Shown here in pieces: positions 2,916 through 8,158 of a stretch of DNA of 9,362 bases; positions within the stretch are counted from its first letter, which is position 1, and every line of letters begins with the position of its first letter. The stretch lies in the IMG/VR virus record IMGVR_UViG_2663762627_000002; one strand, written 5' to 3'. The translations under genes and the position numbers were made by a program. The stretch comes from a virus (lineage: Duplodnaviria > Heunggongvirae > Uroviricota > Caudoviricetes). A model generated the notes under the pieces. That model saw only the letters and a list, made by a program, of their open reading frames with translations. It had not been told where the DNA came from and did not search any database.

Positions 2916-3525
2916 TCATCGCCCCACTCATCACAATATGCTTCGACCGGAGTTTTTCCCGCTTCATAGTCATCACGCTAGGATTCGACATCAGCAGCAC
3001 TTCCACCGCGTAACTCACCATAGTCCATTAATAGTTCATCCCGCTCTTCAAAACTGATGTTATATTTGGCTGAACAAAAATCAGCCACTTTGTTCTTCCT
3101 CATCGTCTTTTATTTCGTGGTATGAGTAATTGCAGTAGTTAAAGAAAATTTCTTATGCTCCGTCATGAATTTCCTCAGGTGTTGCGTCATCGTCCACTTC
3201 GAATACATCCTCAAAATCTCCACCAGCTATTCCCGTTTCAATAATAATTTTGAACTTTCGCATTTCACTACCGCCCTTTCGGGCGGCCTCCTGATGTTCT
3301 GAGGGTGCAGAAATCCATCCGGTTAAGGATTAAATTTTATTTACAGAACTGAATTTAATTATTCAGATATACGTATCTGTAGCCTTACGAATCTACTCAC
3401 TGGATGCCTCTTTCATAAAAATAATCCAGTGGGTTTTATCGTTTTTTCCCTGTTCGTTGACAGATAACAGGTTTTCTGTCTGTCAGTGCCAGAATCTGGC
3501 TTACCGGTATTTGCGTTTCATTCCA

Positions 3526-6106: not shown

Positions 6107-6514
6107 ATGGAAACAAAAAATTTAACTATCGGCGAACGCATCAGGTATCGTCGGAAAAACCTCAAACACACCCAAAGGTCTCTTGCTAAAGCCCTGAAAA
6201 TCTCCCATGTGTCTGTATCACAATGGGAACGGGGTGATAGTGAACCTACAGGGAAGAACCTTTTTGCCCTCAGCAAAGTATTGCAATGCTCACCAACATG
6301 GATTCTATTTGGCGATGAAGACAAGCAACCAACACCACCTGTTGAGAAGCCAGTTGCCTTATCCCCCAAAGAACTAGAGCTCCTTGAGCTGTTTAATGCA
6401 CTGCCAGAATCAGAACAGGATACCCAGCTCGCCGAAATGCGAGCTCGAGTAAAAAACTTCAATAAACTCTTTGAAGAATTACTAAAAGCCCGTCAGCGGA
6501 CAAATAAAAGATAA
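6107..6514 (+). CDS. XRE-family (CI-like) prophage repressor, 135 aa, without a peptidase/autocleavage domain
   Basis: N-terminal HTH (LKHTQRSLAKALKISHVSVSQWERG). No Shine-Dalgarno and an operator palindrome ends 3 bp before the ATG, suggesting a leaderless transcript. C-terminal half is short and coiled-coil-like, as in RacR-type repressors. Confidence 0.85.
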   Translation: METKNLTIGERIRYRRKNLKHTQRSLAKALKISHVSVSQWERGDSEPTGKNLFALSKVLQCSPTWILFGDEDKQPTPPVEKPVALSPKELELLELFNALPESEQDTQLAEMRARVKNFNKLFEELLKARQRTNKR

Positions 6515-6552: not shown

Positions 6553-6610
6553 TAGCTATAGCATACAAAATCACTTGACCGATATGTTAGTCATGGCTAA
6601 TCTTGTTTGC
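6553..6610 (+). promoter_or_regulatory. OL/PL-like operator-promoter downstream of the repressor gene
   Basis: Operator-like sites TGTTAGCTATAGCA (6553-6566) and near-palindrome TTAGTCATGGCTAA (6587-6600) share half-sites with the 6024-6106 operators. TTGACC (6575-6580), a 17-bp spacer and TAATCT (6598-6603) form a rightward promoter overlapped by the second site. Confidence 0.45.
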
Positions 6611-6680: not shown

Positions 6681-6836
6681 ATGGATACTATCGATCTTGG
6701 CAACAACGAATCTCTGGTGTACGGCGTGTTTCCAAACCAGGACGGCACGTTCACCGCAATGACGTATACCAAAAGCAAAACGTTTAAAACCGAAAATGGT
6801 GCCCGTCGCTGGCTGGAAAGAAACTCAGGTGAGTGA
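6681..6836 (+). CDS. Small early-left protein, 51 aa (MDTIDLGNNESLVYGVFPNQDGTFTAMTYTKSKTFKTENGARRWLERNSGE); resembles YdaF-type prophage proteins (from memory)
   Basis: ATG at 6681 with GAGG 5 nt upstream. The track ORF 6603-6836 starts at an upstream TTG. Confidence 0.6.
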   Translation: MDTIDLGNNESLVYGVFPNQDGTFTAMTYTKSKTFKTENGARRWLERNSGE

Positions 6837-6837
6837 T

Positions 6838-6966
6838 ATGGATTTCGACACAATCATGGAAAAGGCTTACGAAGAATACTTCGAAGGCCTTGCCGAAGGC
6901 GAAGAAGCTCTCAGCTTCAGTGAGTTTAAACAGGCGCTTTCCAGTTCGGCAAAATCTAACGGCTGA
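6838..6966 (+). CDS. Small acidic early-left protein, 42 aa (MDFDTIMEKAYEEYFEGLAEGEEALSFSEFKQALSSSAKSNG); YdaG-like by position
   Basis: ATG at 6838 lies 1 nt after the stop of the preceding gene, with AGGTGAG upstream. Below the size cutoff of the ORF track. Confidence 0.5.
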   Translation: MDFDTIMEKAYEEYFEGLAEGEEALSFSEFKQALSSSAKSNG

Positions 6967-6995
6967 TAAGCGAAACAGCACCGCGAGGAATCAGT

Positions 6996-7214
6996 ATGCA
7001 GAAACGAGAACCCGTCATCATCGCGCCAGACTATACCGATGATGAACTTTATGAGTGGATGCGCCAGAAAATTAATGCAGCGCAGGATCTGAAATGGGCT
7101 AATGAAGCCAGGGCTAAGCAGGCTGAAAATCTGTCCGCTCTGGAGCAGGATATCACCAATCTGGAAAAAGCAGCGGCATTAAGCATTGCCAGAATGATTA
7201 CATACCCGCGTTAG
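6996..7214 (+). CDS. Hypothetical early-left protein, 72 aa (possible Kil-like by position only)
   Basis: ATG at 6996 with GAGGAA 5 nt upstream. Helical, charged sequence with no recognised motif. Confidence 0.6.
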   Translation: MQKREPVIIAPDYTDDELYEWMRQKINAAQDLKWANEARAKQAENLSALEQDITNLEKAAALSIARMITYPR

Positions 7215-7239
7215 TAGCTAATCAACAAAGCTAAGGTTA

Positions 7240-7612
7240 GTAATTAAGGAGTTCTCCACGGGTGAGGTGGAGTGCGTGCGCCGGACACGGGTGCGCATCC
7301 GGAACTGACAGTTTACTGAAAGGATATTTCCCTGAAAAGTCAGACCATAACGCGAAAGCGCACGGCGAGGTAGCTGGTTCATAGATAGCCTGTCGTTAAA
7401 TTTTCGTCGACCGTGCGCTTCCGGTTGTGGCAACCCGCGAAATGGCGCGGCGGTAAGTATGGCGGGGTTATTCCTTCCCCGTTGAGGACACCGGGTTGTC
7501 AGGTTGACCATACGCTTAAGTGACAACCCCGCTGCAACGCCCTCTGTTATCAATTTTCTGGTGACGTTTGGCGGTATCAGTTTTACTCCGTGACTGCTCT
7601 GCCGCCCTTTTT
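7240..7612. other. GC-rich, ORF-poor, hairpin-dense segment; candidate structured ncRNA or unrecognised element
   Basis: No plus-strand ORF of 60 aa or more across ~400 bp. Many stems, including CTCCAC/GTGGAG (7254-7272), CGC-GAAA-GCG (7351-7360), GCGCACGG/CCGTGCGC (7358-7365 / 7411-7418) and GGGTTGTCA/TGACAACCC (7493-7529). Visibly higher GC than the flanks. Confidence 0.3.
7570..7612 (+). terminator. Terminator-like structure (GGCGG ... CCGCC followed by CTTTTT)
   Basis: Stem 7570-7574 / 7602-7606 encloses a sub-hairpin and is followed by a T5 run at 7608-7612. The large internal loop makes this uncertain. Confidence 0.35.
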
Positions 7613-7617
7613 AAAGT

Positions 7618-7763
7618 GAATTTTGTGATGTGGTGAATGCGGCTGAGCGCACGCGGAACAGTTAAAACCAAAAACAGTGTTATGGGTGGATTCTCTGTAT
7701 CCGGCGTTAATTGTTAACTGGTTAACGTCACCTGGAGGCACCAGGCACTGCATCACAAAATTC
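7618..7763. promoter_or_regulatory. Control region bracketed by a perfect 13-bp inverted repeat (GAATTTTGTGATG 7618-7630 / CATCACAAAATTC 7751-7763), with nested dyads
   Basis: Inside are the dyads ACGTTAA/TTAACGT and CCTGG/CCAGG, two GTTAAC hexamers, and a copy of TTCTCTGTA (7691-7699) that also occurs in the origin-adjacent 12-bp repeats. Ends 19 bp before the ATG at 7782. Confidence 0.4.
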
Positions 7764-7781
7764 ATTGTTGAGGACGCGATA

Positions 7782-7970
7782 ATGAAAACGTTATTACCAA
7801 ACGTTAATACGTCTGAAGGTTGTTTTGAAATTGGTGTCACTATCAGTAACCCAGTATTTACTGAAGATGCCATTAACAAGAGAAAACAAGAACGGGAGCT
7901 ATTAAATAAAATATGCATTGTTTCAATGCTGGCTCGTTTACGTCTGATGCCAAAAGGATGTGCACAATGA
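7782..7970 (+). CDS. Small hypothetical protein, 62 aa (MKTLLPNVNTSEGCFEIGVTISNPVFTEDAINKRKQERELLNKICIVSMLARLRLMPKGCAQ)
   Basis: ATG at 7782 with GAGGA 7 nt upstream. Stop TGA overlaps the start of the next gene (ATGA at 7967-7970). Confidence 0.6.
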   Translation: MKTLLPNVNTSEGCFEIGVTISNPVFTEDAINKRKQERELLNKICIVSMLARLRLMPKGCAQ

Positions 7971-8158
7971 ATTCAGCATTTGTGCTTGTTCTGACAGTTT
8001 TTCTTGTTTCCGGAGAGCCAGTTGATATTGCAGTCAGTGTTCACAGGACAATGCAGGAGTGTATGACTGCAGCAACCGAACAGAAAATTCCCGGTAACTG
8101 TTACCCGGTCGATAAAGTTATTCACCAGGATAATATCGAAATCCCGGCAGGTCTTTAA
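7967..8158 (+). CDS. Small exported or membrane-anchored protein, 63 aa, with N-terminal signal-peptide-like segment and three Cys (MNSAFVLVLTVFLVSGEPVDIAVSVHRTMQECMTAATEQKIPGNCYPVDKVIHQDNIEIPAGL)
   Basis: ATG at 7967 with AAGGA upstream; translationally coupled to the preceding gene. Hydrophobic N-terminus followed by a hydrophilic, Cys-containing domain. Confidence 0.6.
   Translation: MNSAFVLVLTVFLVSGEPVDIAVSVHRTMQECMTAATEQKIPGNCYPVDKVIHQDNIEIPAGL

Follow-up and report, generated by a model that had tools for sequence, protein, structure and literature searches.

A separate, highly conserved and pseudoknotted four-helix RNA module was found at positions 7424-7538 of a 9,362-nucleotide (nt) stretch of viral DNA from the class Caudoviricetes (IMG/VR record IMGVR_UViG_2663762627_000002; the whole stretch is called the window and all positions refer to it). 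The module is common to many temperate phages, in which the small RNA (sRNA) or terminator modules downstream of it differ. It lies in the segment 7215-7615, which is with high confidence the untranslated spacer between ydfC and dicB in the dicBF operon, which is the early-left (PL-like) operon of a cryptic lambdoid prophage of Qin type, holding the gene of the Hfq-binding sRNA DicF. The DicF locus is already known and the segment as a whole is no new RNA. Across lambdoid and P1-type phages the locus is best conserved in the upstream module and not in DicF. The Rfam model and the genome annotation span only the last 52-53 nt of the DicF precursor, a 190-nt RNA of which the module forms the 5' two-thirds.

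About 130 copies of the module were gathered from viral contigs, phage records and P1-like plasmids, with 72 distinct sequences in the final alignment; the known taxonomic range of the copies covers Escherichia, Shigella, Salmonella and Klebsiella plasmids. The consensus from RNAalifold on a MAFFT alignment was uninformative, the H1 helix being misaligned, and a hand-derived structure, pair counts and folds of H1 in each sequence were used. The comparison suggests that the element is a four-helix junction of about 115 nt on the + strand. Its helices are Pa (7424-7431/7531-7538), P0 (7435-7439/7446-7450), H1 (7463-7467/7477-7481) with a CU-rich loop, and P2 (7493-7501/7521-7529, the GGGTTGTCA/TGACAACCC stem) with a near-invariant loop of 19 nt. 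The pseudoknot is formed between GUAUGG in the linker of P0 and H1 (7457-7462) and CCAUAC in the P2 loop (7508-7513). The minimum free energy (MFE) fold of the single sequence 7424-7546 gave the same four helices.

The pairing was counted in a model-based alignment of the 72 sequences. In this alignment 95.2% of the cells were paired, compared to 33-57% in the slid controls, and nine pairs of the module were changed on both sides. The paired fraction, the doubly changed cells and the covariation score were not reached by any shuffle, and this was also examined in the MAFFT alignment. Compensatory changes support the fold of 7424-7538. The most variable helix was H1, with 39 sequence variants and at least six different stems (for example CGGGG/CCCCG, CUGGGG/CUCCAG, CAGGGG/CUCCUG, CAGGUG/CACCUG, CUGGG/CCCAG and GGGU/ACCC), while its loop retains UCCU. 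The P2 helix of the P1 lineage showed exchanges from U-A to C-G and from G-C to A-U. The pseudoknot was paired in 99.1% of the cells and carried one compensatory change, P1 having GCAUGG/CCAUGC where its close relative P7 and all the lambdoids have GUAUGG/CCAUAC; U-G intermediates were seen in two lineages. The compensatory evidence for the pseudoknot is suggestive, not conclusive, because most of the exchanges come from few lineages. An extended pseudoknot (columns 35-37 with 107-109 of alignment A3) was paired in 100% with G-U/G-C variation only, and it conflicts with P0 (longer in P1). The scanning of four P2-loop positions in 2.9 million viral contigs revealed only two true variants (C to A, uncompensated); the remaining matches with substitutions in the P2 loop were due to chance.

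The fold of the core element is only slightly better than that of shuffled sequences (z = -1.4, compared to -3.9 for the hairpin 7345-7431 and -2.3 for DicF); the evidence for the module is comparative and not thermodynamic. The search of 7215-7555 with cmscan, both at the gathering threshold and at E<=10, gave no Rfam family. Over 7200-7800 at E<=10 the search listed DicF, a sub-threshold STnc100 match and a chance match to ftsZ-DE. A likeness to 5S rRNA noticed by eye was rejected, the local alignment score being 16 against a shuffle mean of 15. The literature searched gave no function for the 5' part of the precursor, 7424-7538, where older papers on dicF or the P1 genome may note upstream conservation, and a full-text search for the conserved sequence strings of the module returned no match. 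The 9-mer GTTGAGGAC occurs twice, at 7479-7487 directly after H1 and at 7767-7775 at the ribosome-binding site of dicB. The CU-rich loop of H1 may possibly be linked to dicB translation through this repeat.

The distribution of the module was analysed by distant BLAST comparison with phage genomes, in which the part conserved beyond Qin-type prophages was about 7424-7546 and not DicF. The identity was 89% for cdtI and Stx2c phages, 82-86% for a Salmonella phage and a phage recorded for Actinobacillus, and 77-82% for P1/P7. The genomes that carry the module include lambdoid phages of Qin, Rac, cdtI and Stx2c type, and P1/P7, in which it lies in the leader of the ban operon. The covariance model R1 found exactly one copy per genome searched. 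This copy was on the PL side in the cdtI phage (complete genome), an Stx2c phage (first 30 kb), the window and a further locus (L001). The cdtI, Salmonella and 'Actinobacillus' phage copies lie 3' of a repressor gene and a PL-type promoter. The P1 copy (AF234172, record positions 68721-68851, locus positions 2483-2613) lies in the ban-operon leader immediately 3' of the C1-controlled promoter Pban. The annotated 'dicF-like region' of P1 (68791-68892) is offset from the truly conserved part, which starts about 45 nt after Pban; in P1 the module is followed by a P1-specific terminator and then by two tRNA genes. The record PP818812.1 ('Actinobacillus phage vB_Apl-pPE4') has an early region (DicA, YdaT, Kil, exonuclease VIII) and a terminator after the module that are near-identical to the E. 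coli plasmid-prophage CP100067. The record looks like an E. coli-type lambdoid phage, and its host label may be wrong or a recent transfer may have taken place.

The sequences 3' of the module were examined for terminators. An intrinsic terminator was found by the automatic test in 122 of 125 scorable loci, and the other three, all of one sequence type, have a longer hairpin followed by U5; the terminator is thus present in 125 of 125. These terminators differ in sequence, comprising DicF, several DicF-like hairpins and GCCCAUCUUCGGGUGGGCG-U6 in P1. The distance from the module to the U-run ranges from 31 to 133 nt.

The co-occurrence of the module with the N antiterminator was also analysed. 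The tblastn searches with lambda N, 933W/P22-type N and HK022 Nun gave no match in 136 module-bearing loci, of which 94 extended at least 2.5 kb upstream. The same searches gave a match in each of the four control loci (N in L258-L260, Nun in HK022). The genes adjoining the module matched only PHROGs families of unknown function, none of them N-like, and a screen for arginine-rich motifs at the module loci returned only DicA-like repressors. The two N-encoding phages found keep the neighbouring modules (DicF-like terminator, leader and kil), and in them the module is reduced to remnants with different breakpoints. In phiSTEC1589-Stx1c and about 102 complete E. coli genomes the long hairpin upstream is kept and roughly 7431-7518 is gone, whereas Shigella phage 75/02 Stx keeps only about 7508 onward, the 3' third of the module. 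The natural module-less variants lie at 6886-7163 of PQ600364.1 (L258) and at locus positions 2990-3140 of KF766125.2 (L269). The persistence of remnants indicates that the module was lost from these N-encoding phages and not inserted elsewhere.

The first-pass annotation of this DNA had considered the segment as the possible scar of an inserted element, and a scar or cargo of an unrecognised mobile insertion is very improbable for the module. Such an origin agrees with the discrete block of about 92 nt, between GGTTGTG and ACAAC, that is present in the window and absent from phiSTEC1589-Stx1c, and with the presence of the module in unrelated lambdoid and P1 backbones. However, neither flanking or terminal repeats, nor a target duplication, nor associated mobile-element genes were seen. 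The 3'-strand remnants retained in the N-encoding phages differ in their breakpoints, a pattern that speaks for deletion and against insertion. The orientation and place in early operons are constant, and no identical copies at many sites were seen, R1 giving one copy per genome searched.

The genomic setting tentatively favours the reading of 7424-7538 as an RNA that would bring about read-through (antitermination) in cis and independently of N, with a function like that of put and an unrelated sequence. An antitermination-type element had been one of the first suggestions for the segment, and on genome context it is the best guess for this part of it. The module would influence, in cis, either the transcribing RNA polymerase or the choice of terminator. 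It would modify the polymerase or counter the action of the terminator or of Rho, and early-left transcription would in this way pass the DicF-type terminator and the long untranslated leader. A fraction of the polymerases would pass the ever-following terminator and reach the distal early-left genes of phages without N. The constant position upstream of an intrinsic terminator argues for this role, and so does the early-operon site just after repressor-controlled promoters in lambdoids and P1. The lack of N or Nun matches in the 136 loci is in accordance with it, along with the two distinct truncations in N-encoding phages whose neighbouring modules are retained. The near-invariant loops are shared by phages with unrelated regulators, and this invariance fits a host target such as RNA polymerase. 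A read-through role would explain together the pairing with terminators, the early-operon position, the invariance and the apparent redundancy with N.

Several observations weigh against this reading. The module is present once per genome, and the R1 search gave no second copy in the rightward (PR-side) operon of the genomes searched. The searches gave neither sequence nor model similarity to putL/putR. The Pa helix is not present in the copies of P1/P7 and of the 'Actinobacillus' phage. Transcripts longer than ydfABC-dicF-dicB-ydfD were not detected in K-12 (PMC10448788), and any antitermination is therefore not clearly processive along the entire operon. One N module is common to the two N-encoding phages, and the mutual exclusion of N and the element thus represents few independent events. 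The support is correlative, the lineages are phylogenetically linked, and diverse N proteins could escape tblastn. A wider form of the read-through reading is possible though rather doubtful: the 115-nt module would represent a new class of protein-independent cis-acting read-through RNA, absent from Rfam and carried by thousands of E. coli prophages and P1/P7, and it would resemble HK022 put in function but be unrelated to it in fold. By such a class the N-less lambdoids and P1 would carry early transcription past a DicF-type terminator and long leaders, and the terminator would double as the 3' end of an sRNA and as a checkpoint.

The constant terminator 3' of the module would also suit a sensor, that is a riboswitch-like aptamer or thermosensor that sets the efficiency of the following terminator. 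The build is aptamer-like, having a four-way junction, a pseudoknot between loop and linker, invariant junctions and loops, and variable helices. The strands of Pa have rival partners, 7424-7431 also pairing with 7345-7351 of the long hairpin upstream, and the 3' strand of Pa can form an alternative small hairpin in some variants. A sensor is nevertheless improbable. The distance to the terminator U-run varies over 31-133 nt, and no anti-terminator pairing conserved across the variants was found; candidates for alternative pairing found in the Qin type are not conserved in the cdtI, Salmonella and P1 types, and P1 has none. There is no shared metabolic theme downstream, and no known riboswitch family was matched by cmscan at E<=10 over 7200-7800.

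The identity of the segment was established by comparison with E. coli genomes. The gene order of the window is dicC, dicA (6107-6514), ydfA (6681-6836), ydfB (6838-6966), ydfC (6996-7214), the spacer, dicB (7782-7970) and ydfD (7967-8158), the same as in the annotated Qin-type prophage of E. coli genomes. The segment is identical to E. coli K-12 MG1655 at 400 of 401 positions, therefore the published K-12 results carry over directly to the window. The sole mismatch is at position 7363, C in the window and T in K-12; C7363 makes a C-G pair within the long hairpin where the K-12 counterpart is a U-G wobble. A match was present in 4328 of 5426 complete E. coli genomes. Nothing substantive was counted against the identity and processing of the segment. 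The segment was first described as atypical for intergenic DNA in a lambdoid early operon, but for the dicBF operon it is not atypical. The proposed structured non-coding RNA is correct, and this RNA was already known as DicF and its 190-nt precursor from about 7424.

DicF is among the first bacterial small RNAs described. The cmscan check suggested in the first-pass annotation found it in the segment: the Rfam family RF00039 matched 7556-7607 with 76.7 bits (gathering score 48, E = 5e-16) over model positions 1-52 of 52. The ncRNA dicF annotated in NC_000913.3 (MG1655 1649382-1649434) lies in the syntenic place and maps to 7555-7607, giving a DicF of 53 nt on the + strand. The intrinsic terminator of DicF (7570-7612, +) consists of the stem GGCGGUAUCAG/CUGCUCUGCCGCC (7570-7580/7594-7606) followed by U5 at 7608-7612, which is the terminator-like end with a T5 run noticed at the first reading. 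The fold of 7555-7612 has an energy of -15.9 kcal/mol (z = -2.3). DicF pairs with the ftsZ, xylR, pykA and manX mRNAs, and in the literature division is inhibited by its pairing with ftsZ mRNA; as the sequence is identical, the ftsZ-pairing function is safely transferred to the DicF of the window.

The published data on processing were mapped onto the window. Northern blots have shown a DicF transcript from the Qin dicB locus. According to Ragunathan et al. 2023 (PMC10448788), DicF arises by processing of the polycistronic transcript from dicBp. In the same work a cut by RNase III at +813/+814 of this transcript gives the 5' end of a 190-nt species, the 53-nt DicF depends on RNase E, and the 190-nt species builds up in stationary phase and in an rne-ts strain (PMC10448788). 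The dicBp promoter was read as TTGACC at 6576 and TAATCT at 6599 with a transcription start site (TSS) at about 6611. The TSS and the published +813/+814 together place the RNase III cut at about 7423/7424, and the distance 7424-7612 is 189 nt, compared to 190 nt for the published precursor.

A long imperfect hairpin of about 25 bp (7345-7431, +), with the core 7357-7365/7411-7419 (GCGCACGG/CCGTGCGC), ends at this position. Its MFE is -36.7 kcal/mol (z = -3.86), and none of 200 shuffles was as good. Its stem is kept in all 14 sequence variants, and the apical part varies, including an indel of 3 nt. This hairpin is probably the RNase III substrate, with the cut at about 7423/7424 at its base. 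A small hairpin GUUAUCA/UGGUGAC (7546-7565, +) has an AU-rich loop that holds the DicF 5' end, 7554/7555, as the RNase E site. The 3' end of DicF is ascribed in published sources either to intrinsic termination or to RNase III acting on read-through transcripts.

The leader between dicF and dicB (7613-7781) folds as a single multibranch domain (MFE -62.9 kcal/mol, z = -4.6), and the duplex closing it has about 28 bp (7613-7635/7748-7770). The leader is near-invariant across Qin-type, Rac-type and N-encoding phages, and in the N-encoding ones it precedes kil and not dicB. The published 3' end of a 72-nt DicF (about 7626) and the end of a 1,146-nt species (about 7756) map onto the two arms of this second long duplex, thereby supporting the mapping of the coordinates. 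The leader duplex is probably a second RNase III substrate. Taken together, transcription begins at dicBp (TSS about 6611) and passes ydfA, ydfB and ydfC before it reaches the spacer. RNase III cleaves the base of 7345-7431 (about 7423/7424), yielding the 190-nt RNA, and RNase E cleaves the AU-rich loop at 7554/7555, yielding the 53-nt DicF. The 3' end of DicF comes from the U5 terminator at 7608-7612 or from RNase III on read-through RNA, and dicB and ydfD are carried on the read-through transcripts.

These processing sites also bear on the function of the module, which could form the 5' domain, functional or stabilising, of a bipartite 190-nt 'long DicF' and of its phage relatives. The module would either be a scaffold, for protection of the RNA or guidance of its processing, or bind a host factor in trans, and the variable 3' part would supply the antisense seed and the terminator. 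The accumulation of the 190-nt species in stationary phase and in the rne-ts strain agrees with such a domain, as does the position of the cuts, that of RNase III at the 5' end of the module and that of RNase E just 3' of it. The relatives join the same module to different seed and terminator modules, and the CU-rich loop of H1 (UCCU) is like anti-Shine-Dalgarno seeds. This role is somewhat less likely than the read-through role. N-encoding phages have retained DicF-like sRNA modules in the absence of the element, so that sRNA can be made without it. Of the two parts the scaffold is the more conserved and the supposed seed the less so, an unusual pattern among sRNAs, and no trans target is known.

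The part of the spacer 5' of the long hairpin (7215-7344, +), directly after the ydfC stop, is variable and non-coding. It holds the local hairpins CTCCAC/GTGGAG (7254-7272), GUGCGC/GCGCAC-CCGGA/UCCGG (7273-7302) and 7305-7343, and its fold has z = -2.05. The homologues are mosaic over this part, and many align only from about 7275 or 7335 on. The ARAGORN search of the window found no tRNA or tmRNA genes. A full-length match to the Rfam sok antitoxin (RF01794, 104 bits, gathering score 59) lies at 1933-2104 on the - strand and represents a hok/sok-type locus, the counterpart of Qin hokD.

The motifs listed at the first reading were all located where they had been placed: CTCCAC at 7254 with GTGGAG at 7267, CCGGA at 7281 and 7299 with TCCGG at 7298 and 7420, GCGCACGG at 7358 with CCGTGCGC at 7411, and GGGTTGTCA at 7493 with TGACAACCC at 7521. 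The four GTGCGC/GCGCAC hexamers are also there (GTGCGC at 7276, 7291 and 7413, GCGCAC at 7358). The GNRA hairpin GCGAAAGC has its sequence at 7352-7359, but it is not formed in the minimum-energy fold and falls inside the 5' arm of the long hairpin. The enrichment in GC is real but modest, with a content of 0.52 for the segment, 0.48 for ydfABC upstream, 0.42 downstream and 0.46 for the whole window. The 401-nt segment folds better than shuffled sequences (z = -2.5, 0/100), but the opposite strand is equally good (z = -2.6), therefore the z-score of the whole segment alone cannot identify the strand.

The coding potential of the segment was analysed in the same way, and the statement that 7215-7615 holds no credible open reading frame (ORF) was borne out: the frames are broken in homologues and the Pfam search of four ORFs gave no match. 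A decayed gene, named at the outset as the finding that would speak against a structured RNA, was looked for and not found. A decayed protein gene or a hidden small-protein gene is exceedingly improbable, even though AAGGAG at 7246-7251 stands 10 nt 5' of the GTG at 7262 and 'hypothetical proteins' are annotated across the segment in some phage records. The 40-codon GTG frame (7262-7384) has an in-frame TGA in about 90% of the homologues. The antisense stop-free stretch of 130 codons, which contains an ORF of 111 amino acids (aa), is kept in the closest relatives, but 17 of 32 close homologues have a shorter one, 14 of these through an indel of 1 nt. The H1 hairpin changes its length among variants in steps that are not multiples of three, and the substitutions follow base pairing. 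The 40-aa, 36-aa and antisense ORFs were rejected as coding on the in-frame TGA, the indels and the lack of Pfam matches. The coding and mobile-element readings are considered excluded.

The rediscovery of DicF shows that the structural cues used at the first reading were sound. Should the module prove to be an RNA antiterminator, put would be the only earlier example from phages. The module would then explain the early-left expression of many N-less lambdoid prophages, including that of the toxic division inhibitors DicB and Kil, and would add a control point at a locus implicated in the virulence of enterohaemorrhagic E. coli (EHEC) and in phage exclusion. A trans-acting or stabilising role of the module would instead make the 190-nt 'long DicF' more than an intermediate of processing.

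The locus was finally compared with the known systems. The DicF sRNA (RF00039) and its 190-nt precursor in the K-12 Qin dicBF operon represent the same locus with the same flanking genes, and their processing sites map onto the structures described here; DicF itself shows no difference from K-12. The STnc100 family (RF02076) gave a sub-threshold score of 34 bits (gathering score 47) at 7619-7759 in the leader, which is outside the reported segment and the module. The likeness of the P1 'dicF-like region' (AF234172 68791-68892) to the dicF region was recognised by annotators, and the match found here is in the same leader. However, P1 has conserved the upstream module and not the 53-nt DicF, and the terminator hairpin GCCCAUCUUCGGGUGGGCG-U6 is unrelated to DicF.

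The lambda nutL site with N has the same map position as the module, on the early-left transcript between PL and kil/exo, and the module and N are apparently mutually exclusive. The lambda nut site has boxA and boxB, whereas the module has no boxB-like hairpin and its carriers have no recognisable N. A boxA-like UGCUCUC is found only upstream of the cdtI- and Salmonella-type copies and not in Qin or P1. The putL and putR sites of HK022 give processive antitermination without a protein factor and, like the module, have conserved unpaired nucleotides and tertiary contacts (for put, PMC9378689). The defining activity of put RNA is the suppression of termination in cis through its binding to the beta-prime zinc-binding domain of RNA polymerase. 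The search for their homology by blastn and nhmmer gave only chance 9-mers in the 20-32 kb region of HK022, and R1 found nothing in HK022 at E<=5; a homology suggested by the shared putL 9-mer GCGCGGCGG was rejected as it is at chance level. HK022 carries one put site in each early operon (PL and PR), while the module occurs once per genome on the PL side. The architecture of put is two stem-loops and a triplex, compared to four helices and a pseudoknot in the module. Both are structured RNAs of about 70-115 nt that lie 3' of an early promoter and upstream of terminators in lambdoid phages without N.

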